64,000 nucleotides of DNA, from the NCBI GenBank assembly GCA_964654465.1, contig CAZZIO010000065.1, positions 64,001 through 128,000 on the forward strand, written 5' to 3'. The notes beneath the pieces were generated by a model. That model was not told where the DNA came from. It did not search any database and saw nothing but the letters and a program-made list of their open reading frames with translations. This DNA comes from an uncultured Dictyoglomota bacterium (GTDB taxonomy: Bacteria; Dictyoglomota; Dictyoglomia; Dictyoglomales; Dictyoglomaceae). A program made the position numbers and the translations under genes. Positions 30,134 to 49,546 of this stretch are shown in pieces. Each line of letters starts with the position of its first letter. The first letter of the stretch is position 1.

Positions 30134-31159
30134 GTGAAAGGAGGCTTAAGAGTGGATATAAAAACTATACTAAAGAACCTATCAAATCTGGATGGTCCTT
30201 CAGGTTATGAATATAAAGTAATAGAGTATATAAAAACCGAAGCAGAAAAAATCCCAAATACTACCAACTATGTTGATAATCAGGGAAATCTTATCGTAAA
30301 AAGGGAAGGAAAAGGCAAAAAAATAGCCCTTTTTGCTCACACCGATGAAATAGGTTTTGTAATTACTAAGAAAGAATTAGGTAATTATTTCAGATTTCAC
30401 ACCTTTGGTGGAGTAGATCCTAAGATTGTAATTTCTCAAAGGCTGAGAATACATACAAAAAAAGGTATAGCTTATGGTGTGGTAGGAATGTTAGAACCTC
30501 ATTTACAAACGGAAGAGATGAGACAAAGAGTTTTAACTTTTGATGACTTATTCATGGATGTGGTAGAAAATTCAGAATATGTATCTATAGGAGATTTAGC
30601 TACTTTTTCATCAGAGGCTTTTGAATTAAATGAAAAGTATGTAACGGGAAAAGCCTTAGACAATAGAGCAAGTTGTACTACTTTACTTTATACTTTATAT
30701 CTTTTAAATCAATATGTAGTAGAAAATGAGGTATATTTTGTCTTTTCTGTAAGAGAAGAAGATGGAACTTCAGGAGCTTCTACTTCTGCATATCACATAA
30801 ATCCTGATCTTGCTATAGTATTAGATGTAACTCATGGGGATATATATAGACCAGGTTATCCCAAAATTGAAACAGGTAAAGGTCCAGTATTAGATATTGG
30901 AACCATGGTTGATTATAAATATTTTGAAAAAATCAAAAATATCGCTGAAAAAATATCAGTAAACTACCAAATAGAACCAAATGGAGAACACAGTCATACT
31001 GATACAGACAGAATCCAAATAACAAGGGAAGGTATTCCAACTCTACTAATCTCTATACCCTTAAGATACATGCATACACCATATGAAGTAGTAAATATAA
31101 AAGATATAGAAGAAACGGCAAGACTTCTAAGTTATTTCATAGCTACTGGAGGTGAATAA
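30134..31159 (+). CDS. M42 (TET) aminopeptidase, paralog 1
   Basis: AHTDE, ALDNR, EE, D and MH metal/catalytic motifs; true start may be the GTG at 30152. Confidence 0.88.
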   Translation: MKGGLRVDIKTILKNLSNLDGPSGYEYKVIEYIKTEAEKIPNTTNYVDNQGNLIVKREGKGKKIALFAHTDEIGFVITKKELGNYFRFHTFGGVDPKIVISQRLRIHTKKGIAYGVVGMLEPHLQTEEMRQRVLTFDDLFMDVVENSEYVSIGDLATFSSEAFELNEKYVTGKALDNRASCTTLLYTLYLLNQYVVENEVYFVFSVREEDGTSGASTSAYHINPDLAIVLDVTHGDIYRPGYPKIETGKGPVLDIGTMVDYKYFEKIKNIAEKISVNYQIEPNGEHSHTDTDRIQITREGIPTLLISIPLRYMHTPYEVVNIKDIEETARLLSYFIATGGE

Positions 31160-31161
31160 CT

Positions 31162-32163
31162 ATGCTTTTAAAAGAACTCTCCAACCTTTGCGGGGTTTCT
31201 GGTTTTGAACAAGAGATAAGAAATTTTATAAAGGAAAAAATAAAAGATAAAGTAGATGATATAAAAGAGGATAAATTAGGAAACTTAATAGCATTCAAAG
31301 AGGGGAAAAATAATAAAAAGCTAATGTTAACAGCTCATATGGATGAGGTAGGATTTATCGTAAGTAATATAGAGGAAGACGGAAAAATTAGTATTATTCC
31401 CCTTGGATCCATAGATCCGAGAGTGGTTCTTGGTAAAAAAGTGGTAATTGGAGAGAAAAAAGTACCTGGAATTATTGGTTCAAAACCGGTCCATCTAATG
31501 ACAGGTTATGAAGGCATTTCCTCTTTTGAAAATATAAAAGTTGATATTGGAGTTTCCAAAAAACAAGAGGCAGAAAACAAAGTAAAAATTGGTGATTTCG
31601 TTAGTTTTGCCCCCAATGCTATGCTACATAAAGATTGGATATCTGGAAAAGCATTGGATGATAGAGGAGGATGTTCCATACTTATAGATCTCATAGAGGC
31701 CAATATAGAACCCTTTTATAATACATATTTCACCTTTGTTATTCAAGAAGAGACAGGATTAAGAGGATCAGGGGTAGCTGCAAATCAGATAGACCCAGAT
31801 TATGCCATAGTTATCGAAACTACTACATCAGGTGATAATCCAGAATTTCCTGAGGCAAGAAGATCAAGCGAACTTGGCAAAGGACCCGTGATTACACCAG
31901 CACATAGAGGATATGTAAATGATGAAAAACTTTTTAATTTTGCCATTAAAGTAGCTCAAGAAAATAATATTCCTTATCAAATAAAAAGAAGAACCGCAGG
32001 GGGTACTGACGCTGCAAGAATTGCCATAACCACTGGTACTCCCTCTTTAGTCATTTCCATTCCATCCCGTTATATTCATTCCCCAATGTGTGTGGTAAAC
32101 CTTCAAGATTATCAAAATACTTTTAAACTCTTATCCATTATCATTACAAAGGAGGTAAATTAA
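31162..32163 (+). CDS. M42 (TET) aminopeptidase, paralog 2
   Basis: AHMDE, ALDDR, QEE, GGTDA and RYIHS motifs. Confidence 0.9.
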   Translation: MLLKELSNLCGVSGFEQEIRNFIKEKIKDKVDDIKEDKLGNLIAFKEGKNNKKLMLTAHMDEVGFIVSNIEEDGKISIIPLGSIDPRVVLGKKVVIGEKKVPGIIGSKPVHLMTGYEGISSFENIKVDIGVSKKQEAENKVKIGDFVSFAPNAMLHKDWISGKALDDRGGCSILIDLIEANIEPFYNTYFTFVIQEETGLRGSGVAANQIDPDYAIVIETTTSGDNPEFPEARRSSELGKGPVITPAHRGYVNDEKLFNFAIKVAQENNIPYQIKRRTAGGTDAARIAITTGTPSLVISIPSRYIHSPMCVVNLQDYQNTFKLLSIIITKEVN

Positions 32164-33176
32164 TGAAAGAGCTAATTAAAAAACTTACTACCACCCCTTC
32201 TCCCAGTGGAAGGGAAGAAAAGATAAAACAGACCATATTAGAAGAATTACAAGGATATATAGATGGATATAAAATAGACAAATTAGGAAATCTTATTGTA
32301 TGGAAAAAGGGTAAAAAAGAAGGAAAAATTCTTTTAGATGCTCATATGGATGAAATAGGGGTTTTAGCTACTTATATAGATGACAAGGGATTTATAAGAA
32401 TCGAGCCTATAGGGGGTGTATCTCCTTATAACCTCTTGGGAAGCAGTATTCTATTTCCAGAGATTGAAGGATTTGTAGGAGTAGAAGGAGAAACTTCAGA
32501 GGAGATGGCTAAAAATATTAAAAACCTTGATTTTGATAAGATATTTGTAGATATTGGAGCAAATAGTAAAGAGGAAGCTGAAAGTTTGGTTCCTCCTGGC
32601 ACTTTTGGAGTTTATTCTTCATCTTTTAGAGACCTTGGAAATCGTGTAGTTTCAAAAGCTATGGATGATCGAGTTGGTTGTGCTATTATTATTGAAGTAT
32701 TTAGGAGATCAACTCCCATTTATGATTTGTATGGAAGTTTTTCAGTACAAGAAGAAGTCGGCCTTGTAGGTGCAAGTGTCGTAGCTTTTGATATACAACC
32801 AGATGTAGCCATAGCTGTAGATGTAACAGCTCATTCTGATACCCCAAAAGGATTAAAAAGAATATCTTTAGAACTTGGCAAAGGCCCTGCAATAAAGATA
32901 AAAGATAGTGCATCCATAAGTGATAGAAGAATTGTAGAAAAATTAAGGTGTTTAGCAGAAAAAAATCAAATACCTTACCAAATTGAAATACTCCTAAGAG
33001 GGGGTACAAATGCTGCTGTCCTTCAAAGAACAAGAGCAGGAATTATAGCAGGAACACTATCTATTCCAACAAGATATGTCCACTCTCCTCACGAAATGAT
33101 AGATATAAGAGATGTAGAAAATGCTGTAAGATTATTTAAAATCTTTGTAGAATCAGAGGATTCTATAAAATTATAA
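32163..33176 (+). CDS. M42 (TET) aminopeptidase, paralog 3
   Basis: AHMDE, AMDDR, QEEVG, GGTNA and RYVHS motifs. Confidence 0.9.
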   Translation: MKELIKKLTTTPSPSGREEKIKQTILEELQGYIDGYKIDKLGNLIVWKKGKKEGKILLDAHMDEIGVLATYIDDKGFIRIEPIGGVSPYNLLGSSILFPEIEGFVGVEGETSEEMAKNIKNLDFDKIFVDIGANSKEEAESLVPPGTFGVYSSSFRDLGNRVVSKAMDDRVGCAIIIEVFRRSTPIYDLYGSFSVQEEVGLVGASVVAFDIQPDVAIAVDVTAHSDTPKGLKRISLELGKGPAIKIKDSASISDRRIVEKLRCLAEKNQIPYQIEILLRGGTNAAVLQRTRAGIIAGTLSIPTRYVHSPHEMIDIRDVENAVRLFKIFVESEDSIKL

Positions 33177-33182: not shown

Positions 33183-33215
33183 GGGGAGGAATAGAGGTAT
33201 ATTTCCTCCCCTTTT
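33183..33215 (+). terminator. Terminator after the M42 cluster
   Basis: GGGGAGGAA...TTCCTCCCC followed by TTTT. Confidence 0.7.
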
Positions 33216-33222
33216 ATTACTA

Positions 33223-33251
33223 TTAACAAGATTAAAAATTATGCTTAAAAT
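33223..33251 (+). promoter_or_regulatory. Promoter of the XRE gene, probably leaderless
   Basis: TTAACA-17 nt-TAAAAT, ATG 6 nt later, no SD. Confidence 0.55.
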
Positions 33252-33257
33252 ATTATC

Positions 33258-33575
33258 ATGAATGTGGGGAAGAGGATTAGAGAATTAAGAAAAAAGAAAA
33301 ATTTCAAATTAGAAGACTTGGCTCAAAAAACAGGTCTCTCTCTATCTTATATATCCTTAGTAGAACGAGGCTTAAAAAATCCATCATTAAAAGCTTTAGA
33401 AAAAATAGCAAAAGCTTTTAATGTGCCTACTTCTTATCTATTTTCAGGTGAAACTGAAGAAACCTTAGAAACTTTTCTCAGAGCTAACACCTCATTGGAT
33501 GAAGAAGAAAGAAAAATGATAATTCAGTTAATAAAGTCATTAGAGAGTAGGAAAAATGTACGAGGATCTGACTAA
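33258..33575 (+). CDS. XRE-family HTH regulator
   Basis: RIRELRKKK..LEDLAQKTGLSLSYISLVERG..NPS motif. Confidence 0.92.
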   Translation: MNVGKRIRELRKKKNFKLEDLAQKTGLSLSYISLVERGLKNPSLKALEKIAKAFNVPTSYLFSGETEETLETFLRANTSLDEEERKMIIQLIKSLESRKNVRGSD

Positions 33576-33984
33576 AGAGATTTTAAGTTACTTCTTTATA
33601 AAGAAGCCACCTGTAAAACCTGACGTAATTGCTTATGGTTTAGGTTTTAATATAACATTCACCAAAGTCCCAACTCATAAAATATCTGGAATAATTTACA
33701 ATAAAGAAATATTAATAAATTCATCAGATCCAATAGTAAGACAAAGATTTTCCTTAGCTCATGAGTTAGGACATTATTTCCTACATGATCAATCATCCAC
33801 CATTTATAAATTTGATAAAGAATATATAAGAAAAGAACAAGAAGCAGATTTATTTGCTGCATCTCTTTTAATGCCCATATTTATGTTAGAGAATTATTTA
33901 TATCTCCCGTTAGAGAAGATAGCCAAGATATTTCTTGTATCCAAAAAAGCAGTAGAATTAAGATTAAAAGTTATAACAATCTAA
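33556..33984 (+). CDS. ImmA/IrrE-family metallopeptidase
   Basis: RQRFSLAHELGH, EQEADLFAASLLMP and C-terminal HTH 'IAKIFLVS..AVELRL'. Confidence 0.9.
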   Translation: MYEDLTKEILSYFFIKKPPVKPDVIAYGLGFNITFTKVPTHKISGIIYNKEILINSSDPIVRQRFSLAHELGHYFLHDQSSTIYKFDKEYIRKEQEADLFAASLLMPIFMLENYLYLPLEKIAKIFLVSKKAVELRLKVITI

Positions 33985-34029
33985 TATAATCCTTATTTTC
34001 CAATGATTTAAAACTTCTTTAAAGATATC

Positions 34030-34116
34030 TTGACAAATTTAACATTATTTTAATATACTATTTTCGTTATTAACACGTGTAAAGTTTATTTTTTTTAAGA
34101 TAATTAACACGTGTTA
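34030..34116 (+). promoter_or_regulatory. Starch-locus promoter with two palindromic operators
   Basis: TTGACA(34030)-18 nt-TATACT(34054); TAACACGTGTAA at 34071-34082 and TAACACGTGTTA at 34105-34116. Confidence 0.75.
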
Positions 34117-34207
34117 TAAGGAGGTGATTAGAAAATTACAATAAATAATATTCCAAACTTTTCCATCAATGATTTTAAATATTAAAACAAGAAGGGGGAA
34201 TAGAACT

Positions 34208-35657
34208 ATGAAAAGGTTTTTATTGTTTGGATTACTTGTTGTGTTATTTATATATTCGTTTTCTTATGCTCAAGAAGTCACCTTCTATGGATATAGCGAA
34301 ATAGGAGTCCATAGCGAATTTCTTAAAGACTCAAATGGAAATTATTCTAATACCTTAGGTCCTGTAAACCTTGATTATTGGAATACATACTTTAAAGTAA
34401 AAGCAGAACCATCGAGTTTTCTCGAAAGCTATTTTGAACTCAAAATGTATCCAAATTTCAGTAATTTATTTGATCCAGGAATAATTGAAGTACAAAAAGC
34501 CCATTTAACTGCAAAAAGTTCTTTGCTAAATCTTAGAGTTTATTATAAGGAAGACGCAACTCCCTTTGGTGATCCCCTACTTTTAAATAAACCTGGAGAT
34601 CTACCTGGATCTTCCTGGATATGGGGGAATGGATTTGAATTAATAGGAAAACTTTTTAATACAAATATCTTAGCTGGTATCAATTCTTCTGATCAAATTT
34701 CTTATTTAAGATTAAAAAGAAGCTTTGCTCCCCTTCTTATTGGTTTCACAGCAATGGGAACAAATTGGGGAGAAGCTAATAAAGGAAAGAGTCTGTTTGG
34801 TGTTGATGTTACTGGAAAAATCGGACCTGTAGATCTTAAAGCTGAAGGAATATATGGAAAATGTGTATGGGGACCTAACCCTACTGATTCAGAAGGTGGT
34901 TTTGTCTTCTTTGCTGACTTTTCTTCTCAAATTAATTCTATGATAAGAGTATATGGAACAGCTAAAAAAGTGGATTTTGGATATATTAATCAATTTGATT
35001 GGTTCAAAACAGATCAAACCCAATTAATTCCAGGAACAAGCAAATCAGCAGGTACCTATCTAAAACTTGGAGCATTTTTTACACCCCTTTCAAATCTTTC
35101 CATTGAACCTATAGTTGAGTTAACAAGTAGAGAGGATATAACAGAAAAAACAACAAAATTAACGGGTATTGTTACTTATAATCCTACAAAACAAATTTCC
35201 TTAAAAGGTACCCTTGTAAATAGCACTGTTAACAATACAAATTCCACCAGCATAACAGGTGAAGTAACAGTCACTCCTTCTTCTATACTTACTGTTTATG
35301 GAAAAGTTTACTATCCTTTAAATAGTAAATCATCAATTAAATAGTAAATTATCAATATATGGAAACACAACCATTACTCCTCTTACAGACCTTACTTTCT
35401 ATGGTGCACTATCATCTGATCTTAATTCCAATACTACCTGGATATATATTAAACCAAGTTATAAATTATCTAAAGATGTAACCTTAACAGGTATTTATCA
35501 ATATAAAAAGATAGGAGAAACAGAAACCCATACTACATATTATATAAGCTTAAGTTTTAACAATGCCACATTATATTTTGGAAACGCTCCATCAGAAGAA
35601 GGAGCAACCAGTGATTTTGTAAAACAAATTGGAGCTAAAATTTCCTTTGATTTCTAA
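34208..35657 (+). pseudogene. Outer-membrane beta-barrel (putative maltodextrin porin), frameshifted by a 19-bp duplication
   Basis: Signal peptide, alternating beta-strand pattern; reading frame continues after the duplication to ...QIGAKISFDF-TAA. Confidence 0.72.
35318..35355 (+). repeat. 19-bp tandem duplication
   Basis: TTAAATAGTAAATCATCAA followed by TTAAATAGTAAATTATCAA (1 mismatch). Confidence 0.92.
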
Positions 35658-35671
35658 AAGAGAAAACAAAA

Positions 35672-35696
35672 AGGTGGGGAGTTAAACTCCCCACCT
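35672..35696 (+). terminator. Intergenic hairpin after the beta-barrel gene
   Basis: AGGTGGGGAG-TTAAA-CTCCCCACCT. Confidence 0.65.
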
Positions 35697-35713
35697 ATAA
35701 AGGAGGTATAAAA

Positions 35714-36517
35714 ATGAAAAGATATCTTATTTTAGTATTCTTAATTCTTCTTTCCTCTACTCTTTTTGCTGAATCTGTAAAATATCCATTAGTTTTTAAT
35801 GACCCTGTAAATGATGATAAAGGACCTGGAACATACGTATACCCAACAGATGCTGTCTTTAAACCTGGAAGCTTTGATTTAACAAAAGTAGTAATTGATG
35901 CTGACAATGAAAATGTATACTTTAAAATTTCTTTTAGAGTTCCCATAGAAAACCCATGGGGAAGCCCTCTTGGCCTTTCCATTCAAACTATACATATTTA
36001 TATTGATAAAGATGGAAAAGAAAATTCAGGTTTTAGAGATTTTATACCAGGAGTAAGGGCTCAAACCACTCTAAATAGTGCTTGGGATATGGCTATATTG
36101 GTAGAAGGTTGGCCTACCGAACTAAAGGCTTCTGTAAAGTCTGCAGTACCTGAAATGTATAAATACTGCATATTCCCTGCAAAGGGTGTAAGTGTGGAAG
36201 GAAATACCATTATAATTCCTGTACCTAAAAAGAGTTTAGGAGGAGATTTTGTGAAAGGCTGGGGCTTCCAAGTTTTTATCCTTGGACAAGAAGGTTTTCC
36301 AACACAAGATCCTGTATCATGCAGAATTAGAGAAGTACTATCTTCTCCACAACAATGGAGATTTGGTGGTGGCGATGATTTCTATGGAGATCCCAATATT
36401 ATTGATTTATTAGATTATGAAGGAATAAATCAATATGAAGTATTAAGCAAATACAAAAGTGATGCTAAATACGAGAAGAATGTATATGCACAAATTCCCT
36501 TCATATACGTGAAATAA
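35714..36517 (+). CDS. Secreted standalone glucodextranase DOMON-like domain protein
   Basis: Signal peptide; DPVNDDKGPGTYVYPT, FDL, NPWGSP.G.S.Q and WRFGGG motifs. Confidence 0.82.
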   Translation: MKRYLILVFLILLSSTLFAESVKYPLVFNDPVNDDKGPGTYVYPTDAVFKPGSFDLTKVVIDADNENVYFKISFRVPIENPWGSPLGLSIQTIHIYIDKDGKENSGFRDFIPGVRAQTTLNSAWDMAILVEGWPTELKASVKSAVPEMYKYCIFPAKGVSVEGNTIIIPVPKKSLGGDFVKGWGFQVFILGQEGFPTQDPVSCRIREVLSSPQQWRFGGGDDFYGDPNIIDLLDYEGINQYEVLSKYKSDAKYEKNVYAQIPFIYVK

Positions 36518-36535
36518 TTAGGAGGGAGATTGTAT

Positions 36536-39500
36536 ATGAGAAAACTTTACTTAATCTTTTTGTGTTTGATACTTTTTATCAGTATAGGATTCTCGGAAAA
36601 TATAACACAAATACCAGTAAACCCATATATCTCTAATGTAAAAAAAGTAGAAAAACCTTTATATTTAGCTATAATATGGCACAATCATCAACCTTTATAT
36701 TATGATCCAATTGAGAATTTAAATATAATGCCATGGGTCAGAATGCATGCAATAAAAGATTACTATGATATGGCATATATACTAAAAAACTATCCTCAGA
36801 TTAAAGCTAATTTTAATATGGTCCCCTCCCTCATATATCAATTAGATCTCTATGCCAATAAAGGATTAAAAGACAAATACTTAATTCTAACAGAGAAACC
36901 AGCTGATGAACTAACCCCAGAAGATAAAGACTTTATTTTAAGAAGATTTTTTGATGTAAACTGGGATAGAATAATAAAAAAATTCCCAAGATACTGGGAA
37001 CTCCTAAATAAAAGAGGACAGTCGATAGATGATAATGTCATTTCAAAAGCAATCCAGAACTTTACAGTTCAAGATTTTAGAGATCTTCAAGTTTGGTTTA
37101 ATTTGGCATGGTTTGATCCTGACTTTCAAACTTACGATAAAGATTTATCCAGATTAATACAAAAAGGAAAAGACTTTTCAGAAGAAGACAAAAAAATAGT
37201 AATTAATAAGCAGTACCAAATAATGTCAGAGATCATGAGATTATATTCAGAATTGCAAAAAAACAAACAGATAGAAGTTGCCACTACACCTTTCTTTCAT
37301 CCTATAATGCCTCTACTATATAACATTAAATCTGCCAAAGAAGCAGTACAAGATATAAAGATACCAGACTTAAATATCAGCTATCCAGAAGATGTAGATG
37401 CTCAATTAAAAATGGCAGTAAATTACTATAAGAAATATTTTAAAGACAGCCCAAAAGGTTTATGGCCCTCTGAAGGCTCTGTAAGTCAAGAGATCATTTT
37501 TTCTGTAGTCAATAATGGCTTTCAATGGATGGCAAGTGATGAAGATGTTTTAGCAAAATCCTTAGGTGTTCCTATTACAAGAGATTCTAAAGGTAATGTT
37601 ACAAATCCAGATGTTCTTTATAAACCATATATTGTAGAAGAACAAGGTAAAAAACTATATATGGTATTCAGAGATAAAAATTTATCAGACAAAATTGGAT
37701 TTGTCTATAGCGGAATGAAAGGAGCTAATGCAGCAAAAGACTTTGTAAATTATTTAGAGAATATTTATGAAAGGACAAAAGATACAAAAGACCCATACTT
37801 GGTAACAGTAATCTTGGATGGAGAAAATTGTTGGGAATATTACGAAAATGACGGAAAAGAGTTTTTAAATTCACTATATAAATTATTATCTGATAACCCT
37901 TATATTGAGACTGTAAGAATATCAGATTTTTTAGACAAATTCCCACCTAAAGCTAAAATCAACAGATTACATGCTGGATCTTGGATTGATGGTACTTTTC
38001 TAACTTGGATAGGAGAAAATGAAGAAAACAAAGCATGGGAACTATTAGACAAAACAAGAACAAACTTAATATATGAGACAGTCAAACAAAAAAAGAAAAT
38101 ATCACCAGTACTAAATCCAGTTAATTTAAAATCAGATTTAGAAAAAGCATGGTTTGAATTATATGCAGCAGAAGGAAGTGATTGGTTCTGGTGGTATGGA
38201 GATGATCAGGATTCCACTAATGATATTGCTTTCGATGAGTTATTTAGAAAACATTTGATAAACATATACAAACTAATTAAAAAAGAAATCCCACCAGACT
38301 TACACTTACCTATAGTAAAGATAGGAGAAGAAAAACCTATTCAAAGTCTACAAAGAAAATTTACCCCCAAAATTGATGGAAAAATATATCCTCAAGATGA
38401 ATGGAAAGATTCCGCTATATACAATGTAAAAATTGGAACAGGTACATTCGCAAAACCAGGTAAATTCTTAGAAAGGTTATACTTAGGCTTAGATAACGAT
38501 GCTCTCTATTTCTTGATTGAAAGTAAAGAAACTCTAAAAAACCTGCTTAGAAAACCTTATTATTTAGCTATTTACTTTTCTAACCCATACCTAAAAGAAA
38601 TAAATGTTTATCCAAGAAATTCAGATAAAAGCTTAGGATATGGTATAGGTTATGAAATATTAATAGATTTATCACAAATAAAAGATCTTGGAGAAATAGA
38701 AGTACCTCTAAATCAAGCCTTAGGCAATAATCAATGGAAAGAAATATCAAAAATAAAAGGAGGAATATCTGAGAAATATGTGGAAATAGGAATACCATTC
38801 AAATCCATGAAATTACAAGGCAGAGATCAAATTGCAATCAATGTGATCTTTGGCTCAGACAAACCTGAAGATATAGTCCCTTACTATATACCCATTTATG
38901 TAACAGTACCAGAAGCAAAATTAGACATAGTTTATTTCTCCATTGATGACCCACAGGGAGATGACTACGGTTGGGGAAGCATAGTTTATCCTACTGCTCC
39001 AGTATTTAAATCTGGAGTCTTTGACATAATTCATGTTGAAATGGGAAAAAGTAAAGAAGATATAGTATTCAGGATAAAAATTAGAGGGGATCTTGAAAAT
39101 CCATGGGGTTCACCTACAGGGATTTCTGTACAAACAATTGACATTTATATTAACGATGGAAAAGAAGGTCCATACTATTATAAAGCATTACCTGGAAGGC
39201 AAGCTAATATACCTGAAGGATGGAATAAAGCAATATGGGCTGAAGGCTGGATACAGGAATTGATAATTCCTGTCTTAAACGAAAAAGGGAAGGTAGACTT
39301 AAAGGAAATTAAAGGAGTAGTACAAGTTACAGCAGATCCAACCGAAAGAACTATAATAATTTCAATACCAGAAAAATACTTGGGTACTGTAGATCCAAAT
39401 TGGAAAATACTTATAATAATGTGCGGCCAGGAGGGATATCCAAGACCAGGAAATTGGAGAGTAAGAGAGGTTGAAGAAACAGCAAAACAATGGAGATTTG

Positions 39501-39664
39501 GTGGTGGTGACGACTTCTACGGAGATCCAAATATTATAGATATGATTGTTCCTCCTGGAATAAAACAAGAAGACATATTGTCTAAATGGAAAAGTAGTGA
39601 TGAAGAAGAAAACGTATATGTAGATCTACCTTTGATCCCCCTTAGGGTTTTAATGACTCAATAA
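36536..39664 (+). CDS. Secreted GH57 amylopullulanase with C-terminal DOMON-like domain
   Basis: WHNHQP, WPSE nucleophile, ILDGEN, AEGSDWFWW GH57 conserved regions; signal peptide. Confidence 0.92.
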   Translation: MRKLYLIFLCLILFISIGFSENITQIPVNPYISNVKKVEKPLYLAIIWHNHQPLYYDPIENLNIMPWVRMHAIKDYYDMAYILKNYPQIKANFNMVPSLIYQLDLYANKGLKDKYLILTEKPADELTPEDKDFILRRFFDVNWDRIIKKFPRYWELLNKRGQSIDDNVISKAIQNFTVQDFRDLQVWFNLAWFDPDFQTYDKDLSRLIQKGKDFSEEDKKIVINKQYQIMSEIMRLYSELQKNKQIEVATTPFFHPIMPLLYNIKSAKEAVQDIKIPDLNISYPEDVDAQLKMAVNYYKKYFKDSPKGLWPSEGSVSQEIIFSVVNNGFQWMASDEDVLAKSLGVPITRDSKGNVTNPDVLYKPYIVEEQGKKLYMVFRDKNLSDKIGFVYSGMKGANAAKDFVNYLENIYERTKDTKDPYLVTVILDGENCWEYYENDGKEFLNSLYKLLSDNPYIETVRISDFLDKFPPKAKINRLHAGSWIDGTFLTWIGENEENKAWELLDKTRTNLIYETVKQKKKISPVLNPVNLKSDLEKAWFELYAAEGSDWFWWYGDDQDSTNDIAFDELFRKHLINIYKLIKKEIPPDLHLPIVKIGEEKPIQSLQRKFTPKIDGKIYPQDEWKDSAIYNVKIGTGTFAKPGKFLERLYLGLDNDALYFLIESKETLKNLLRKPYYLAIYFSNPYLKEINVYPRNSDKSLGYGIGYEILIDLSQIKDLGEIEVPLNQALGNNQWKEISKIKGGISEKYVEIGIPFKSMKLQGRDQIAINVIFGSDKPEDIVPYYIPIYVTVPEAKLDIVYFSIDDPQGDDYGWGSIVYPTAPVFKSGVFDIIHVEMGKSKEDIVFRIKIRGDLENPWGSPTGISVQTIDIYINDGKEGPYYYKALPGRQANIPEGWNKAIWAEGWIQELIIPVLNEKGKVDLKEIKGVVQVTADPTERTIIISIPEKYLGTVDPNWKILIIMCGQEGYPRPGNWRVREVEETAKQWRFGGGDDFYGDPNIIDMIVPPGIKQEDILSKWKSSDEEENVYVDLPLIPLRVLMTQ

Positions 39665-39667
39665 TAA

Positions 39668-39697
39668 AGAAGGAGGGGATATAAGGCCCCTCCTTCT
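39668..39697 (+). terminator. Terminator after the amylopullulanase gene
   Basis: AGAAGGAGGGG...CCCCTCCTTCT. Confidence 0.7.
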
Positions 39698-39762
39698 TGT
39701 TAATCTATCCTATTTTTACATCTTCACAAAAAAATCAATTAGATATAAAATTATTTTTTGTT

Positions 39763-41535
39763 ATGGTAGGCAAGCCTCTTTTTAGGCATATTAAAAAAAT
39801 ATTATTAAAACATAAATGGAAGTATATCTCAGGAGCGTTCTTTCTGCTTCTTACGGATATTTTCCAACTAATCTCCCCTAAACTTTTAGGATGGGGTGTA
39901 GATTATCTTAATAAGGGATCATTATCTTTGAGAAACCTATTTTTAATATTTTTAGCTTTAATTATTTTTGCAATACTTACAGCCTTTTTTAGATATCTTT
40001 GGAGGATGCAAATTATTGCTACTTCTCGTCATATAGAAGCTCAAATAAGAGAAAAATACTTTACCCATCTTCAAACTTTATCATTAAACTACTTTAACTA
40101 TCATAAAACTGGAGAGCTCATGGCTCTTGCTACCAACGATCTTGGAGCTGTAAGAGAGATGTTTGCTTTTGGTATCGTTATGCTCCTTGATACAATCTTT
40201 TTAGGTATTCTTTCTATTTTTTTCCTTATAAGCATAAGTCCCAAACTAACATTATACACAGCTATTCCTTTACCAATAATTACATCAACTATATCCATAT
40301 TTGGAAAAATAACTCACAAAAGATTTAAATTGGTACAAGAAAGCTTTGCTAATCTAACGGATAAAACTGAAGAAACTATAGCAGGTATAAGGGTTGTAAG
40401 AGCTTACGTACAGGAAGAAAAAGAATTAGAGAATTTTTTAGTAAAAGCAAGAGATTTATTAAATAAAAATATAAATCTTGTTAAAGCATGGGGATTTATG
40501 TTTCCTACTATAGAACTATTAGCTAATCTATCTATGCTTCTTGTATTCTTCTTTGGAGGGTTGGAAGTTATAAAAGGAAATATCACCCTTGGTGACTTTA
40601 TAGCCTTCAATTCCTATTTAGGCCTTTTGATATGGCCTATGAATGCCTTAGGATGGGTAATAAACAATTTCCAAAGAGGAAAAGCATCCTTAGAAAGAAT
40701 AAATGAAGTACTTGATGAAATACCTGAAATAAGAGAACCTAAAAATGCAATAAAAAAAGAAAGGTTAAATGGAGAAATTATATTTAAGAATGTATTCTTT
40801 AAATATCCGTCAAGTAAAAACTGGCAACTTGAGGATATAAATATAGAAATAAAACCTGGAAAATTCCTTGGTATCACAGGTCCAGTAGGTTCAGGGAAAA
40901 CCACCTTAGTAAGTCTCATATCAAGACTTTTTGATATACAAAAAGGAGAGATTCTAATAGATGATATTCCTATTAAAAATCTTTCTTTATATTTTCTCAG
41001 AAAAAACGTTGGATTTGTACCCCAAGATAGCTTCTTATTCTCAGATACTATTGCTAATAATATAAGATTTGGCAATCCTAATCTATCAGATAACGAGGTT
41101 AAAGAACTAATAAAAATCGTTGCATTAGAAGAAGATCTAAAAGATTTTCCAGACGGTATATATACAGTAGTAGGCGAAAGAGGTGTTACATTATCTGGAG
41201 GCCAAAAACAAAGAGTCGCAATTGCAAGAGCTTTAGCCATTAATCCCCCTATTTTAATCTTAGATGATGCTTTATCTGCTGTAGATGCTAATACAGAAAA
41301 ACAGATTTTAAGTAATCTATTGGAAATAAGGAAAGATAAAAGTCTTATAGTAATAGCCCAAAGGCTATCAGTTATTCAAGAGGCAGATGAAATAATAGTG
41401 TTAAAAGATGGAAGGATTACGGAAAGAGGAGATCACAATAAATTAATGAGACTTGGTGGATATTATGCTGAGCTTTATGAACAACAACAATTAGAATCTA
41501 AGTTGGAGAGGGAAATAGATGAATCAGTTTTATGA
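39763..41535 (+). CDS. Heterodimeric ABC exporter subunit 1 (TMD+NBD)
   Basis: GPVGSGKT, LSGGQKQR, degenerate LDDA and AQR motifs; ATG at 39763. Confidence 0.88.
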   Translation: MVGKPLFRHIKKILLKHKWKYISGAFFLLLTDIFQLISPKLLGWGVDYLNKGSLSLRNLFLIFLALIIFAILTAFFRYLWRMQIIATSRHIEAQIREKYFTHLQTLSLNYFNYHKTGELMALATNDLGAVREMFAFGIVMLLDTIFLGILSIFFLISISPKLTLYTAIPLPIITSTISIFGKITHKRFKLVQESFANLTDKTEETIAGIRVVRAYVQEEKELENFLVKARDLLNKNINLVKAWGFMFPTIELLANLSMLLVFFFGGLEVIKGNITLGDFIAFNSYLGLLIWPMNALGWVINNFQRGKASLERINEVLDEIPEIREPKNAIKKERLNGEIIFKNVFFKYPSSKNWQLEDINIEIKPGKFLGITGPVGSGKTTLVSLISRLFDIQKGEILIDDIPIKNLSLYFLRKNVGFVPQDSFLFSDTIANNIRFGNPNLSDNEVKELIKIVALEEDLKDFPDGIYTVVGERGVTLSGGQKQRVAIARALAINPPILILDDALSAVDANTEKQILSNLLEIRKDKSLIVIAQRLSVIQEADEIIVLKDGRITERGDHNKLMRLGGYYAELYEQQQLESKLEREIDESVL

Positions 41536-43524: not shown

Positions 43525-44709
43525 ATGAAAAAACTAATCAGTTTAGGTATAATTTTTCTTAGTATATCTGCTGGTTTTTCTCAATTTATTGATCCTTACT
43601 TACTAAAAGAAATATCTCTTGGAGAAAATAGTGTAAATTATTTTCTAATTTATGAGAATTTTTTAATATATAACATAAAGGATCAATTAGCAATTTTAGA
43701 TCTTAAAAACCTTAATGAGAACAAAATAAGAGTGAGATCAAAAAATGCAAGAGACTTTAACACAATTATCAAAGAATTTAAAATAATAGCTACTAAAACG
43801 ATAGCTGTCGTTAACAATGAACCCTACGCTCTAATTTATAACTTTGAAAAAAATACATATACAGAGCTTCCATATAATTTGGAAAGTAACATAAAAATAA
43901 ATAACAATTTTTGGTTTTCTATTTCGCAAAATATACAAAATATTTCCTTTTCAAATACCGGAAAATATATACTAGAGAAAAAACTCGTTGAAACTTACTT
44001 TCTTGGATTTATACCTACTGAGAATCATTATGAATATCGTATATTAAGCTATCCATCCCTAAAAGAATTAATCTTCTTTTCAACTCAAGATGATTTAGAA
44101 GAATCTCTGAATTTCTCTCCTAAGGATACTTTCTTAATGCTAGCAAACTCCTACAACCCTATGGACGATAAAAATGACGATATCTATGGACTTATCCTAA
44201 TTGATCTTAAAAATATTAAAACGATACCTTTGTTTAAAGATGAGAAAATAATAAGTTACGATGTTTCAAAAAGTGATGATTTATTAGCAATTTCCTTTGA
44301 AAAAATAACTAAAGTTATAGACTTTAAAAATCTTTCAGAAATATTTTCTTATCCTATGGGTGGAAGTGTAAGGTTTACTGAAAAAAATGAATTTCTTATT
44401 ATTGAAGGAACAAAGGTTTCCACCCTTATAGATATAAAAACAAAAGAAGTAATAAACACATATTTAGGGAATAATCTATGTATATCACCAAATGAAGAGT
44501 TTTTAGCGTATACTACTACCAATAATCCCTTCTCTTTAATAAAAGAAATTCAATTAGTTCATAGAAAATCAGGTACTCAGAAAAAAATAAGACTTAACAA
44601 CGAATACTTCTTAGAGCATATGAAATTTTCTAAAGATGAAAAATTCTTCATCCTTTTATTATCTGGAAAGGATGGCTATAACATTAATATTTATAAAATA
44701 CAACAATAA
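43525..44709 (+). CDS. Secreted WD40-like beta-propeller protein of unknown function
   Basis: Signal peptide; repeated FSP/ISP/FSKD blade motifs. Confidence 0.55.
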   Translation: MKKLISLGIIFLSISAGFSQFIDPYLLKEISLGENSVNYFLIYENFLIYNIKDQLAILDLKNLNENKIRVRSKNARDFNTIIKEFKIIATKTIAVVNNEPYALIYNFEKNTYTELPYNLESNIKINNNFWFSISQNIQNISFSNTGKYILEKKLVETYFLGFIPTENHYEYRILSYPSLKELIFFSTQDDLEESLNFSPKDTFLMLANSYNPMDDKNDDIYGLILIDLKNIKTIPLFKDEKIISYDVSKSDDLLAISFEKITKVIDFKNLSEIFSYPMGGSVRFTEKNEFLIIEGTKVSTLIDIKTKEVINTYLGNNLCISPNEEFLAYTTTNNPFSLIKEIQLVHRKSGTQKKIRLNNEYFLEHMKFSKDEKFFILLLSGKDGYNINIYKIQQ

Positions 44710-44714: not shown

Positions 44715-45707
44715 TTAAAATTCTTGTAATAATCTTAACATCTCCCTATCTAACTTATGTCCATACCAATCCTCATATTCCACATCTTCTCTTTCAGAGT
44801 CAAGAATTCCAAAAGGTCCTTTAAAGTTCCAAAGAGCATAACCCATACCTCTTTCTTTAAATATTTCCAAAAGATCTCTCATCCAAGAAAGTACTACCTT
44901 ATGAGGTGTATACTTAAAGGCTCCCATCTCTCCACAATGAACACCTATGCCTTTATCCATCAGACTTACCCATCTATCATAATGTTTTTCAAGCTTACCC
45001 CTATCCCAATATTCTCCGTAATGCCAAGCTCCAGGCCACCTAGGCTCAGGCCAGCTTTCCCCTCCCACCCAACTTGCTTTATAATGGGTAAGTCCCATAG
45101 GCAAATACCCTCTACAACTTTGTACAACATTAAGATCAATTAACTCAGGTAAAGGCTCATTTCCATAAGAGATGCCATCTATAATAATCAGCCTTTCATT
45201 ATCAATCTTCCTTATAAAATCTACCGTTTTCCTTATTACCCTCTCATGATCAGTTCTTGTCATAATATCATCTGATACATAGGGTGGTTCATTAATCAAG
45301 TTAAAACTCAAATCTTTTGAGGATATACCTTTGTATCTTCTTGCAAAATATCCCCAATGGTAACAAAAAGCACTTAAAGCCTCCTCATCTTTCCATAAAT
45401 TAAATTTCTCTTTTAATTCCTGATTAACACTGTAACCTGGACCACGATGAAAATTTAAACATATATGTACATGATATTTTTGGCCCCATGAAATTACCTT
45501 ATCTATTTTTTCGAAGAACTCTTCCCTTATATAATAAATATCATCATCTTTTATCCAGAATCTATAATTTAGAGGAATTCTTACAAAATCAAATCCCCAG
45601 TCAGATATCCATTTAAAATCTTCTTCTTCAAAATCTTTATAATGATAATATGAAAACAAATTGGGTAAATTAAAACCCCTCCATCTTGGAATTACGTTTT
45701 TAGCCAT
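44715..45707 (-). CDS. GH5 glycoside hydrolase, cytoplasmic (mannanase/cellulase type)
   Basis: RGFN, FVRIP, LINEP and CGEMG motifs; no signal peptide. Confidence 0.9.
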   Translation of the reverse strand: MAKNVIPRWRGFNLPNLFSYYHYKDFEEEDFKWISDWGFDFVRIPLNYRFWIKDDDIYYIREEFFEKIDKVISWGQKYHVHICLNFHRGPGYSVNQELKEKFNLWKDEEALSAFCYHWGYFARRYKGISSKDLSFNLINEPPYVSDDIMTRTDHERVIRKTVDFIRKIDNERLIIIDGISYGNEPLPELIDLNVVQSCRGYLPMGLTHYKASWVGGESWPEPRWPGAWHYGEYWDRGKLEKHYDRWVSLMDKGIGVHCGEMGAFKYTPHKVVLSWMRDLLEIFKERGMGYALWNFKGPFGILDSEREDVEYEDWYGHKLDREMLRLLQEF

Positions 45708-45716
45708 ATTTACCTC

Positions 45717-46652
45717 CTAAAAATTTAATTCTGGTATTAAAGCTCTTAATAAAGGAACTCTCCATTCATCTTTTTCAGGATCATAAACTCCGAATCCAGA
45801 GAAAAATTCCCAATATGCCCAAGCTATTCCTCTCTTTTCTGCAGATCTTGCCACAAAATCCGTCCATCTAACCCTTGATTCCATATCTGCTTTTGAGTAT
45901 GCTCCAAATTCTCCCATATAAAGAGGTATATTTCCATGTTCTTTAGCCCAATTAACCGCTATATCAAGTTCCTTTTCTATCATCTGCTTTTCTTCATCTG
46001 TACCTAACCATCTAACTCCCACCGGTAAATCTATTTTTACCCATCCTGCTCCTTGATGTGTAAAATTAAAAGGATTATAATAATGAAAAGTTACTATAAT
46101 ATTTTTATCATTTTCAGGAATAATCAACTTATCAAGATTATAAAGGCTATTCCAATTATCAGGTCCTACTACAATTTTTCTATCAGGATTAGTCTTCCTA
46201 ATAATTTCTATAGCTTCCTTTAAAAATTGATTCCATAAATTACTAAGCAAATTATAAGTAGGTTCATTCAATAATTCAAAATATAAATTATGAGGATAAT
46301 CTTTATAGTGCTCTGATATTTGCCTCCATATAGCTAGAAATCTATCCTTTTCTTTCAGTGGATCTTGCATTATTTCATCATAATGATGGATATTTATAAC
46401 TATATAAAGCCCATTATTAAAAGCTTGCTCTATAAGATGATCCACTCTATCAAAAATCTTTTTTTCTATATCATAGGGAGATTCCCTTTTTGAATATATA
46501 CTCCATTTTATTGGAATCCTCACATGGTCAAAACCTACTTCTTTTACTAACTTAAAATATTCGTCTTTAATAACATGCCCACCCCATGCACCTTCAAAAG
46601 GCGCTTCTAAGGCATCTCCAAAATTTATACCACGCCTAATCGGAATATTCAT
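45717..46652 (-). CDS. GH5 endoglucanase, cytoplasmic (Thermotoga Cel5A-like)
   Basis: RGINFGDALEAP.EG.WG, LLNEP, HYY and MGEFG motifs. Confidence 0.9.
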   Translation of the reverse strand: MNIPIRRGINFGDALEAPFEGAWGGHVIKDEYFKLVKEVGFDHVRIPIKWSIYSKRESPYDIEKKIFDRVDHLIEQAFNNGLYIVINIHHYDEIMQDPLKEKDRFLAIWRQISEHYKDYPHNLYFELLNEPTYNLLSNLWNQFLKEAIEIIRKTNPDRKIVVGPDNWNSLYNLDKLIIPENDKNIIVTFHYYNPFNFTHQGAGWVKIDLPVGVRWLGTDEEKQMIEKELDIAVNWAKEHGNIPLYMGEFGAYSKADMESRVRWTDFVARSAEKRGIAWAYWEFFSGFGVYDPEKDEWRVPLLRALIPELNF

Positions 46653-46701
46653 TATAAATTTACCTCCTTAACAAACACATTTTATTTTTTAAAAACATCG
46701 A

Positions 46702-47712
46702 TCATCTTATTTTTGTTTCTGGGATTAACACTTTTAAAAGATGTATTCTCCACATTTTATTTAACCCATCATATACTCCAAAACCTGCCGATGCAAAATC
46801 CCAATATGCCCAAGCTATTCCTCTCTTTTCTGCAGATCTTGCTACAAAATCCGTCCATCTCACCCTTGATTCCATATCCGCCCTAAAATATGCCCCAAAC
46901 TCTCCCATCCACAATGGTACATTCCCATTTCTTTTTGCCCAGTCAACAGTAAAATCAAGTTCCCTCTCTATCATTTTCTTTTCTTGATCTGAACCAGTCC
47001 ATCTAACACCTATTGGAAGCTGAGGCTGTACCCAATCTGCTCCTTGATGGGTAAAATTGAAAGGATTATAGTAATGAAAACTTACTACAAGATTTTTGTC
47101 TTCAGGAAGTTTTAAAAAAGAGATAGTGCTATAATTTGCCCAATTTGCTGTATCTACTACAATCTTCCTCGTTGGATTTGTCTTTCTAATTATCTTTATT
47201 GCTTCAGCCAAATATTCGTTCCAAATCTGAGGTGTAAGATTTGTATTTGGCTCGTTTAAAAGCTCAAACCATAATGTATCTGGATAATTTTTATAATGCT
47301 CTGCTATCTGATCCCATAACGCAAGAAACCTATCTTTGTGTTTTTCAGGATTTTGCATTATTTCATCATAATTATGGATATTTATTATTACATACAAGCT
47401 ATTCTTAAAAGCAAGATCAATCACTTGATCCACTCTATTAAATATGTAATCCCTTATAGTATATGGGGGTTCATATAATGCATGACCATTCCATCTAACT
47501 GGAATTCTCACATGGTCAAAACCCGCTTTTTTTACTAAATCAAAATACTCATCCTTTACATATACCCCCCATGAACCTTCAAAAGGGGCCTCAAGACCAG
47601 TAAGATTAACTCCTCTTCTAATGGGTAATTTGGCTTGAGAATGGACTTCCTTAAAAGAAAAAGAGAGAACAAATAGGAAGATTAAGGAAAAAAGTAATAT
47701 CTTCTTCATCAA
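46702..47712 (-). CDS. GH5 endoglucanase, secreted paralog
   Basis: Signal peptide; LLNEP and MGEFG motifs. Confidence 0.9.
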   Translation of the reverse strand: MMKKILLFSLIFLFVLSFSFKEVHSQAKLPIRRGVNLTGLEAPFEGSWGVYVKDEYFDLVKKAGFDHVRIPVRWNGHALYEPPYTIRDYIFNRVDQVIDLAFKNSLYVIINIHNYDEIMQNPEKHKDRFLALWDQIAEHYKNYPDTLWFELLNEPNTNLTPQIWNEYLAEAIKIIRKTNPTRKIVVDTANWANYSTISFLKLPEDKNLVVSFHYYNPFNFTHQGADWVQPQLPIGVRWTGSDQEKKMIERELDFTVDWAKRNGNVPLWMGEFGAYFRADMESRVRWTDFVARSAEKRGIAWAYWDFASAGFGVYDGLNKMWRIHLLKVLIPETKIR

Positions 47713-47715
47713 TAA

Positions 47716-49518
47716 TCACTCTCCTTCCCCTAATAATTCTATTTTTATTGCCAAATCTCTTTCAAACTCAATAATAGGAATTACATTTTTATCTAAATCT
47801 AATTCCTTAATCTTTTCACCTCTATATGTGTCATAGTAGATTACTTTAATTGGGGGTTTTATTAATAATTCAATACTGCCTAAGAATTTCGAACTATCCA
47901 TATTAGGAATATCTTTTTTATATTGATAGGCCTCTTTAGCATTATAAAGCCATAAAAGTATATATTTCTTACCTTGAAGTCCTATAACCTTAATCTCTCT
48001 ATTATAGACGTTAAATTTATAATTTGTTAACCTTTCAAATTTTTCCTCTAAAAAATTTATATCCTTAACAAAATCCGCTAAAGCCCTATAATGAAAATAA
48101 AGATTATTAGGATGAATGTGATTATCCCACCACCAAGACATTGCAGTACCAGAAGCACCAGACAAAATGGTAGTCCAAATAGCATTATGTATAACATACC
48201 CATTAGGATCTACCCAAAGATCATTTCCACCAGCATCCAACCCAAATTCTCCCACAAGATGAGGTTTTCTATATTTTTCTTTATAAGCTATAAGAGATAA
48301 TAGGGCATCAATATATCTATTGCTTTTATAAATATGAGTTTGTACAAAGTTTAATCCAGAGATACTGTCAATCTCAGGTTTTCCAGGAGAGAAAGCAAAA
48401 CTTGTAGTTATTAGATGTTTCCAGGGATCAATACTATTAAGATATTTAGCCATATCTTCATGCCACTTTTTAACCTCTCCTATAACAAAAGCAGTTGGAG
48501 AAATAATATCTACCTCATTCCAAAATTCCCAAGCAAAAACATTAGTGCTATAACCATATCTTGCCACAATATATCTTAACTTATTTTTATAATATTTAAT
48601 CATCTCATTATTAGTCCAAAAATCTTTGGGTTCTTTCAAGGGTCCTCCATTTTTTTCATAATGGGGTGTATGTTCCCAATATGGATATGCTCCTTCCTTC
48701 TGATATCTAAGTTCATTGTAACTGTCAAAACAAAACATTATGTACATATTTAATTTTTCCGCTAAATTTAATACATAATCAAGTTTCCACGCATTTTTAA
48801 GATCATATTCTTTAACAGATTCCCTTTCCAAAGCAAAAGTAGCCCATGAAGGTCCAAGCCAAACTCTAAAATAATTTCCACCATTTTCAGCACATTTAGG
48901 AAGCCATACATCGTAATCATAAGTACCCTTAGATGTTGCCCAACAAATGTTCGCCCCAATAGGTAAAAATTGTCTCCCATTATCAAACTTAAAATATCGC
49001 CAATTCTTTTCGCTAACCCTTATATACCCGGGTTTTTCAGATTCCTTTACATATATAGTATATTTATCTGATGAGACTTCTCTTCCTGTTTTATCTTTAA
49101 CTTTTATAAAAAATTTATATGAGCCTATATTTATTGGAGAAAATCTTATTTTGAAATATGGATCCCCCACAGGAACCAAATATTCGTAATCATTTTTTAG
49201 TTCTCTTTTATATTCTTGATAGAAAAATCCTGGAACCCTATATTGATTACCATACTGATCTTCAAAAATTCCTTCTACATCTATTTCTTGGGGGTCAAAA
49301 GGATTCAAGTATGAACCCTGTAGAAAAATAGACACTTCAAATAAATTATACCTTCCTAATTCCATTTTAGAGATATCTATCCCTAATATATTCAAAGGTC
49401 TATTGTCTTTATATCTTGACTCATAAGATCCTATACTATTCCTTACACTACTTTCTTTCATACACCCACAAATAATTAATATTATTGACAAAATCAAAAA
49501 CAATATGAAATCTCTCAC
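47716..49518 (-). CDS. Putative lipoprotein: DUF5060-like Ig domain plus clan GH-A (GH5-like) catalytic domain
   Basis: Lipobox-like IICGC; NPFDP..IDV; WEFWNE acid/base; VGEFG nucleophile. Confidence 0.72.
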   Translation of the reverse strand: MRDFILFLILSIILIICGCMKESSVRNSIGSYESRYKDNRPLNILGIDISKMELGRYNLFEVSIFLQGSYLNPFDPQEIDVEGIFEDQYGNQYRVPGFFYQEYKRELKNDYEYLVPVGDPYFKIRFSPINIGSYKFFIKVKDKTGREVSSDKYTIYVKESEKPGYIRVSEKNWRYFKFDNGRQFLPIGANICWATSKGTYDYDVWLPKCAENGGNYFRVWLGPSWATFALERESVKEYDLKNAWKLDYVLNLAEKLNMYIMFCFDSYNELRYQKEGAYPYWEHTPHYEKNGGPLKEPKDFWTNNEMIKYYKNKLRYIVARYGYSTNVFAWEFWNEVDIISPTAFVIGEVKKWHEDMAKYLNSIDPWKHLITTSFAFSPGKPEIDSISGLNFVQTHIYKSNRYIDALLSLIAYKEKYRKPHLVGEFGLDAGGNDLWVDPNGYVIHNAIWTTILSGASGTAMSWWWDNHIHPNNLYFHYRALADFVKDINFLEEKFERLTNYKFNVYNREIKVIGLQGKKYILLWLYNAKEAYQYKKDIPNMDSSKFLGSIELLIKPPIKVIYYDTYRGEKIKELDLDKNVIPIIEFERDLAIKIELLGEGE

Positions 49519-49546
49519 AATTGAACCCCTCTCACCCCTTAAACAC

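Follow-up and report, generated by a model that had tools for sequence, protein, structure and literature searches.

The 64,000-nucleotide stretch of DNA analysed here (the window) comes from an uncultured Dictyoglomota bacterium (assembly GCA_964654465.1, contig CAZZIO010000065.1, positions 64,001 to 128,000). Its G+C content is about 31%, and the closest homologs of its genes carry the names Dictyoglomus or Dictyoglomaceae. Between positions 34030 and 39698 lies a predicted operon of three genes, which encode an apparent outer-membrane beta-barrel (gene 1), a stand-alone secreted Glucodextran_C protein of the DOMON-like type (gene 2) and a secreted enzyme that joins a glycoside hydrolase family 57 (GH57) domain to a C-terminal Glucodextran_C domain (gene 3). 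An earlier interpretation made from the letters, called the sequence-only reading below, had proposed that these genes form a trans-envelope system for starch utilisation. We put the probability at roughly one half that the operon encodes an outer-membrane module for maltodextrins that works without TonB, includes a DOMON-like accessory protein and is regulated with the alpha-glucan genes of a Dictyoglomus-type diderm. The enzyme and the domain are already known; what seems new, as judged from open-access papers and preprints, is the barrel family, its link to a regulon and the recurrent pairing of a barrel with a DOMON-like protein in maltose-type gene clusters.

In the mechanism that we propose, a repressor would bind the two TTAACACGTGTTA-type palindromes just 3' of the promoter, a motif that also marks the genome's remaining genes for starch and maltodextrin use. 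Induction would yield a large plug-less outer-membrane beta-barrel, a secreted Glucodextran_C protein and a GH57 amylopullulanase carrying the same domain. The enzyme would cut starch or pullulan at the envelope while the Glucodextran_C protein, placed on or near the barrel, would act as a glucan-binding accessory. The barrel would then pass maltooligosaccharides over the outer membrane without TonB, after which MalEFG would import them.

The link to alpha-glucan use starts with the control region of the operon. A sigma-70-type promoter of near-consensus sequence (TTGACA-18-TATACT, 11 of 12 positions matching) is located at 34030-34059 on the plus strand. It is the top-scoring of the 23 promoter-like sites within 33200-40200, a count that is uninformative alone given a shuffle mean of 34.1. 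Just 3' of its -10 box is the first operator copy, a palindrome of the TTAACACGTGT type (34070-34082) that matches the 11-mer exactly. The second copy, TTAACACGTGTTA, is at 34104-34116; its core is a perfect 12-nt palindrome and it holds the exact TTAACACGTGT 11-mer at 34104. Neither copy is assigned to a strand. At up to one mismatch, TTAACACGTGT has five sites in the window as compared with 0.24 expected, and a count of five was reached in none of 100 shuffles. The double operator is kept 5' of the orthologous barrel gene in three related genomes (G008, G005 and G002), and a TTGACA box also lies 5' of the operators in the orthologous upstream regions of L021, L023 and L027. The claim that one promoter with a double operator precedes three co-directional genes with signal peptides was therefore borne out.

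The same palindrome recurs across the bacterium's own genome. The 13-mer at up to one mismatch is found 7 times in forward and 8 times in reverse orientation, whereas a control pattern, the motif reversed, has 0 and 1 matches. Allowing one mismatch to the 12-mer gives twelve sites, 10 of which fall at or within alpha-glucan loci. Besides the two sites of the barrel operon (window 34070 and 34104), there is one on contig C15 beside a GH13 amylase, two on C18 beside a GH57 branching enzyme and a GH57 4-alpha-glucanotransferase, one on C22 (32715) beside a GH13 amylase with SusG_C, two on C29 beside phosphorylase and ATP-binding cassette (ABC) genes, and one on C65 (11166) beside a GH57 protein of 842 aa. 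The remaining two are inside an unrelated open reading frame (ORF; C22:111279) and 5' of an MgtC gene (C24). At the start of the window, operator-like sites without assigned strand at 357-368 and 378-389, with two and one mismatches to the 12-mer, lie 5' of malE; the one at 378 is the tenth of the alpha-glucan sites. The MalE/MalF/MalG-type ABC importer that the sequence-only reading had recognised here was confirmed by Pfam at 473-4083 on the plus strand (SBP_bac_1/8; BPD_transp_1 with TM_PBP2_N and MalF_P2; BPD_transp_1). The recurrence of the palindrome indicates that it marks one alpha-glucan regulon. The shared motif is the strongest support for a common regulon that does not rest on synteny, and together with the conserved gene order in Dictyoglomaceae it backs the proposed connection of the operon to alpha-glucan use and MalEFG.

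Several features of the leader and the adjacent DNA were observed alongside. A Shine-Dalgarno-like GGAGGTG stands directly 3' of the second operator (leader 34117-34208), and the real start of gene 1 follows about 80 nt later with its own ribosome-binding site. The same GGAGGTG layout is seen 5' of malE (390-472) and in the leaders of L021, L023 and L027, and the short ORFs that follow it show no conservation. An Rfam scan of 33900-39800 returned nothing but an L20_leader candidate on the minus strand, which at 31.3 bits was below the gathering score of 58.7 and was taken as chance. Directly 5' of the operon, at 33258-33984, an XRE-type helix-turn-helix gene overlaps an ImmA/IrrE-type M78 peptidase gene. 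This pair has its own promoter-like site (33223-33251), and the promoter of the XRE gene has no operator motif. An M78 gene identified by Pfam is also 5' of the barrel gene in G004, and in G005 and G002 an M78-like coding sequence, read from the DNA by eye, stops just 5' of the promoter.

The product of gene 1 is very probably an outer-membrane barrel, from a family that is unclassified, restricted to the lineage and distinct from LamB, OprB and SusC. The N-terminus of the protein, MKRFLLFGLLVVLFIYSFSYA followed by QEV, reads as a Sec-type signal peptide, basic and then hydrophobic. Of 12 aligned homologs, 11 end in ISFDF, and a C-terminal aromatic residue, here Phe, is the signal by which the beta-barrel assembly machinery recognises outer-membrane barrels. 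A low-confidence AlphaFold2 (AF2) model based on a 12-row alignment has a predicted helix at residues 2-18, after which the structure is all beta with 26 strand elements. When the model was searched with Foldseek, at least 284 matches were obtained at E<=1e-3, and all rows shown were membrane barrels (ushers, LptD, TonB-dependent receptors and porins). VIA, an aligner independent of Foldseek, gave the same picture, in that all 50 rows listed were membrane barrels, at a root-mean-square deviation of 7-10 A and with Campylobacter MOMP as the best match (Z 14.6). The nearest language-model clusters to gene 1 are also porin-like. The own genome encodes an Omp85/BamA homolog (PF01103, E 2.4e-49), and BamA, TamB, Skp and Lpx genes are reported for D. 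turgidum (PMC5167688). The sequence-only reading of gene 1 as an outer-membrane barrel ending in Phe is thus supported by a low-confidence model that resembles only membrane barrels, by the conserved terminus and by the presence of Omp85.

The assignment to a family of its own comes from searches that gave little outside the lineage. Neither piece of gene 1 (the gene is interrupted, as described below) matched a Pfam or NCBIfam family at E<=0.1, and this holds specifically for LamB (PF02264), Plug/TonB_dep_Rec and OprB in the Pfam scan. LamB had no match across the own genome either, nor had TonB_C, in an assembly that is 99.97% complete. The earlier statement that the protein has neither LamB nor SusC/TonB features agrees with these results. 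A word-indexed search retrieved 14 relatives of gene 1, of which all named ones are from Dictyoglomaceae. A HMMER scan of all 1.84 billion representatives found four clusters, every one close kin, and a comparison of the gene 1 profile with PDB sequences gave chance-level matches only. In its own genome gene 1 is single-copy.

The reading frame of gene 1 needs separate consideration. It starts at ATG 34208, which is preceded by the ribosome-binding site GAAGGGGG. The N-terminal part (34208-35344, plus strand) comprises 378 codons up to a premature TAG at 35342-35344 and is 98-100% identical to residues 1-379 of P0001, an intact, near-identical homolog of 482 aa that ends in ISFDF and differs from the window in few residues. 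The C-terminal part follows in the +1 frame (35322-35657, plus strand), ends in KISFDF and is 97% identical to residues 374-482 of P0001. The product of about 476 aa that had been predicted for the gene once rejoined over its frameshift is therefore consistent with the intact homolog. The frame shifts at a 19-nt tandem repeat (35318-35356, plus strand; Tandem Repeats Finder: period 19, 2.1 copies, 95% matches). Exactly at this position P0001 has an in-frame insertion of six residues that is absent from all other homologs; the lineage therefore has a tandem duplication, which preserves the frame in one genome and has an extra base here. Nine sequencing runs contain the stretch wholly or in part, with no RNA run among those listed, and four of them gave no contig that could be placed over this region, a blank that may be false. 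The 19-nt duplication is one base more than the in-frame 18-nt version implied by P0001. It may be that the duplication broke the gene and a later one-base loss repaired the copy in the sister genome, or that the events took the opposite order.

If the extra base is real, the barrel would be inactive in this assembly. Gene 1 would then be a true pseudogene, and the operon would work as a unit of the Glucodextran_C protein and the amylopullulanase only, an outcome that we take seriously but consider less probable than not. It is consistent with the position of the premature TAG, which is inside a 19-nt tandem repeat and not in a homopolymer run, and with the complete absence of the barrel from some relatives. 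Yet a near-identical genome carries the intact 482-aa version, and both pieces in the window are still 97-98% identical to it, without further damage. A consensus error is also possible, the source being an assembly of 72 contigs.

Genes 2 and 3 supply the other parts of the proposed maltodextrin module. Gene 2 (35714-36517, plus strand) starts 56 nt past gene 1 and encodes a stand-alone Glucodextran_C protein of 267 aa (PF09985, E 2e-58). Its AF2 model is confident (mean predicted local distance difference test score, pLDDT, 91.5), and only glucodextranase 1ug9 matches it strongly in fold (E 2.7e-15, TMq 0.66), followed by weak matches to CBM9, NxrC and the ethylbenzene dehydrogenase gamma subunit (EBDH-gamma). 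These matches fit the placement of Glucodextran_C in the DOMON-like superfamily that is given in PMC10074034. Gene 3 (36536-39664, plus strand) encodes an enzyme with a GH57 domain at residues 47-475 (PF03065, E 3.6e-64) and a Glucodextran_C domain at residues 803-1026 (PF09985, E 8.4e-58). Its fold matches are solved GH57 chains (E 1e-82) and, at residues 804-1020, 1ug9. The ORF list opens this gene at TTG 36530, and ATG 36536, with the ribosome-binding site AGGAGGGAG 8 nt 5' of it, is most likely the start as judged from the DNA. The translation contains WPSEGS and LDGENCWEY, which we take to be GH57 conserved regions 3 and 4. The N-termini of both proteins read as basic and then hydrophobic, and gene 2 is 44% identical to the C-terminal domain of gene 3 over 245 residues. 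Both the stand-alone DOMON-like protein and the secreted fusion of GH57 to such a domain, as first read from the letters, are supported by these results. The gap between genes 1 and 2 contains a GC-rich hairpin on the plus strand (35672-35696; RNA fold -20.9 kcal/mol, z -4.92, none of 200 shuffles as stable) with no U-run on that strand, and L024 and L026 have a different GC-rich hairpin in the same gap. A terminator-like hairpin of no assigned strand (39667-39698), with a 12-bp stem and 7 GC pairs, closes the operon.

The enzyme has a probable counterpart that was studied biochemically. In D. turgidum the GH57 protein Dtur_0675 was cloned and hydrolysed AZCL-pullulan, and the adjacent Dtur_0676 is annotated 'CBM9' (PMC5167688); the D. 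turgidum enzyme is counted among the characterised amylopullulanases in PMC6037648. Judged by matching annotation and neighbours, the window genes would be orthologous to Dtur_0675 and Dtur_0676. As to the domain, a suggestion that it recognises alpha-glucan chains, hinted at by kinetics, is made in PMC10074034. A paper on a Sulfolobus GH57 amylase had no bearing on the domain (PMC5023256).

The pairing of barrel and domain was followed through 11 genomes of the phylum. Since these genomes are closely related, their counts cannot be treated as independent observations. Seven of them keep the gene order of barrel, stand-alone Glucodextran_C and GH57-Glucodextran_C, to which comes an eighth that is cut by a contig end. 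The check proposed with the original reading, that is, whether homologs of the barrel adjoin GH57 or GH13 genes, thus found the GH57-Glucodextran_C gene in the same order in seven Dictyoglomaceae genomes. The barrel and the stand-alone Glucodextran_C protein are jointly present in 8 of the 11 genomes and jointly absent from the other 3.

A comparable arrangement was found in other phyla. Stand-alone Glucodextran_C proteins are common, with 371 matches at E<=1e-5, many of them named 'DOMON domain-containing'. We examined the best 80 of 568 confirmed loci, a sample that is biased toward the closest relatives. At 60 of the 80, the stand-alone Glucodextran_C gene is directly followed by an unannotated barrel-like gene, whose family is here called A3. 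GH57-Glucodextran_C fusions account for 12 loci (Bacillota, Limnochordales and Chloroflexota), Dictyoglomaceae for 1, and the remaining 7 show none of these arrangements. A3 carriers belong to Acidobacteriota, Myxococcota, Pseudomonadota and other metagenome-assembled genomes. The A3 proteins are 570-735 aa long, with a signal peptide and a C-terminus of the form K-V-x-F. None of ten members scanned reaches a Pfam cut-off, one giving a weak sub-threshold match to DUF2490, and there was no NCBIfam match and no match among PDB sequences. For one member an Atlas model (predicted TM-score, pTM, 0.71) has as its nearest clusters TonB-dependent-receptor-like barrels (DUF6029, TM 0.57) and SLH-porins (TM 0.51).

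The surroundings of the A3 pair are often those of a maltose system. Genes similar to MalF or MalG of the window flank 35 of the 60 A3 loci, and loci checked by Pfam hold MalK (OB_MalK/TOBE), a substrate-binding protein (SBP), MalF-like and MalG-like proteins, Glucodextran_C and the barrel, together with a second Glucodextran_C protein, this one ending in a SHOCT tail. GH77, GH13, pullulanase or GH57 genes lie beside some other A3 loci (L061, L066, L042, L105, L051, L056 and L089). Among ten sampled A3 loci without MalF/G matches, eight show no alpha-glucan gene among the ORFs tested. Two further observations concern the neighbourhood. The second, longer Glucodextran_C protein with the SHOCT end is located 3' of the barrel-like gene (at about 10.7-12.4 kb) in L082, L061, L085, L076, L108 and L102, and a TIG-domain protein of about 1000 aa is nearby in L042, L083 and L096.

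Physical contact within such a pair was addressed by complex prediction for the A3 barrel of L076, a locus of another phylum, with its neighbouring Glucodextran_C protein (alignments A4 and A5). We took this pair and not that of Dictyoglomus, since the barrel of the latter is modelled poorly. Three runs scored 0.45, 0.63 and 0.53 (median 0.53), whereas the best of three controls scored 0.00; contacts agreed to at least 89% between runs and the partner pLDDT was at least 86. The mark for this score is reached by 116 of 157 solved complexes and by 2 of 215 mismatched pairs, and the verdict for the L076 pair was 'weak support'. At scores up to 0.60 are 18 of the 157 solved complexes and both mismatches, and a pass in this range is more often wrong unless the guess was likely beforehand. 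The prediction is taken as a lead only, weakly in favour of contact in the A3 pair, and says nothing direct on the Dictyoglomus proteins.

Taken further, these data raise a more speculative idea, which we hold to be distinctly less probable than the maltodextrin module itself. There may exist an undescribed two-part, TonB-independent maltodextrin gate, in which a Glucodextran_C protein docks on a large plug-less barrel and which stands in for LamB in mal clusters, among them those of Acidobacteriota, Myxococcota and several Pseudomonadota. In Dictyoglomaceae the same kind of device might have arisen from a barrel that is unrelated and specific to the lineage, and have been wired to a GH57 amylopullulanase. 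Among open-access papers and preprints, we found no title or abstract on a pairing of a barrel with Glucodextran_C.

A number of results weigh against the maltodextrin module. The first concerns the barrel itself. Its gene is frameshifted in this assembly, and its AF2 model is of low confidence (mean pLDDT 59.1, pTM 0.41), with Foldseek TM-scores of just 0.17-0.47 to solved barrels. In the VIA comparison, OprB (4gf4) ranked 24th (Z 11.9) and maltoporin (1mpr) 31st (Z 11.3). The structural search that had been proposed for the rejoined protein hence gave a divided result: the listed matches are all membrane barrels, but the model is poor and neither OprB nor maltoporin is near the top. On this model the OprB match is generic barrel likeness only. 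The second concerns distribution. The barrel is absent from 3 of the 11 phylum genomes, each about 99% complete, and one of these, G009, keeps GH57-Glucodextran_C beside MalF/G-like genes. In G006 (L115, G006:C34, 5551-14195) a gap of 95 nt separates the trio from a preceding sugar ABC operon that encodes an SBP and two permeases; genes for LacI and for a GH94 phosphorylase are found 5' of these, and no TTAACACGTGT site was seen ahead of the barrel gene. The third concerns the other components. No regulator gene was found beside the motif sites checked, where the neighbours were SAICAR synthetase, radical SAM, JAB and a SHOCT-like protein. The gene 3 enzyme has a Sec-type signal only, which does not give its location in the cell, and sugar binding by Glucodextran_C was never demonstrated according to PMC10074034. 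Finally, A3 and the Dictyoglomus barrel have no detectable homology (hhalign probability 1.3% and 0.8%), and the gene order of the A3 pair is opposite to that in Dictyoglomus.

The main rival interpretation of the barrel is that it anchors or exposes Glucodextran_C-bearing proteins. Instead of a sugar channel it would be a docking or export platform, comparable to LptD-LptE or MtrAB-MtrC, that binds the Glucodextran_C domains of gene 2 and of the enzyme and holds or exposes the amylopullulanase at the surface. We consider this unlikely, yet parts of the evidence speak for it. Gene 2 and the enzyme tail share the domain at the identity given above, and the barrel and the stand-alone domain were gained or lost jointly. 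The model has about 26 strands with usher, LptD and Mtr barrels among its matches, and Pfam describes the Glucodextran_C family as an 'SLH-like binding module'. Against a platform, the pair at the 60 loci of other phyla is mostly without a domain-bearing enzyme and is within importer clusters, and G009 has the enzyme without the barrel. That the barrel is instead a porin of general function, or a structural protein of the outer membrane in Dictyoglomaceae, sitting beside starch genes by inherited synteny with no functional coupling, would fit the close kinship of all carriers (which keeps the conserved order from being independent evidence), the generic fold matches and the single copy, but is very improbable because the promoter has two copies of the motif that marks alpha-glucan loci and the barrel was lost jointly with the stand-alone Glucodextran_C gene, and because 3 of 11 genomes lack it, which would be unlikely for a major structural protein.

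Other parts of the window were noted in passing. What looks like a cluster for the use of beta-glucans spans 44715-56663; it has three GH5 cellulase genes in tandem, a gene for a DUF5060 protein, an ABC importer of the Opp type (SBP_bac_5 with two permeases and two ATPases) and a LacI regulator. At 30134-33176 three ORFs of about 335 aa follow one another. Pfam identifies the first as an M42 aminopeptidase, and the translations of the second and third look similar to it by eye. The 394-aa ORF at 43525-44709 lies behind two genes for ABC exporters and matches no Pfam family at E<=1e-5.

To our knowledge, how starch oligosaccharides pass over the outer membrane is largely unknown in diderms outside Proteobacteria and Bacteroidota, and no paper on a Dictyoglomus porin was found among open-access papers and preprints. 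That the widespread Glucodextran_C domain is almost always paired with barrel genes in maltose-type clusters provides it with a testable role and also defines two unannotated barrel families. The domain itself has no demonstrated function according to PMC10074034. If the maltodextrin module is real, it would be a third design of outer-membrane glycan uptake beside LamB-type porins and SusCD, and a source of thermostable parts for study.

The proposed module can be compared with several known systems. Like LamB with MalEFGK in the E. coli mal regulon, it has a barrel whose regulation would be shared with a MalE/F/G importer and with alpha-glucan enzymes, and uptake would be TonB-independent. 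LamB has 18 strands, whereas the Dictyoglomus barrel is larger, with about 26 predicted strands, lacks a LamB family match and is partnered with a DOMON-like protein, which LamB is not. The module resembles SusC/SusD of Bacteroidota in that the operon brings together an outer-membrane barrel, a secreted partner without catalytic function and an enzyme that degrades starch. Unlike in that system, Plug and TonB-dependent receptor domains are missing, as is TonB_C from the genome; the partner, unlike SusD, is a Glucodextran_C beta-sandwich in which no lipoprotein signal was seen in the sequence. Gene 3 shows no notable difference from the GH57 amylopullulanases of Thermococcales and D. turgidum Dtur_0675, in which GH57 is likewise followed by a C-terminal Glucodextran_C domain. 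The C-terminal domain of Arthrobacter glucodextranase (1ug9/1ulv) belongs to the same Pfam family and has the same fold as gene 2 and the enzyme tail, but in Dictyoglomus the domain also makes up a whole secreted protein that is encoded beside a barrel gene. A further likeness in arrangement is to the A3 loci, where Glucodextran_C adjoins a beta-rich protein with a signal peptide and an aromatic end, often together with MalK-E-F-G and alpha-glucan enzymes. The A3 proteins, at 570-735 aa, are longer than the 482-aa Dictyoglomus barrel, the order of the two genes is reversed, and a second Glucodextran_C-SHOCT protein is usual in the A3 loci.

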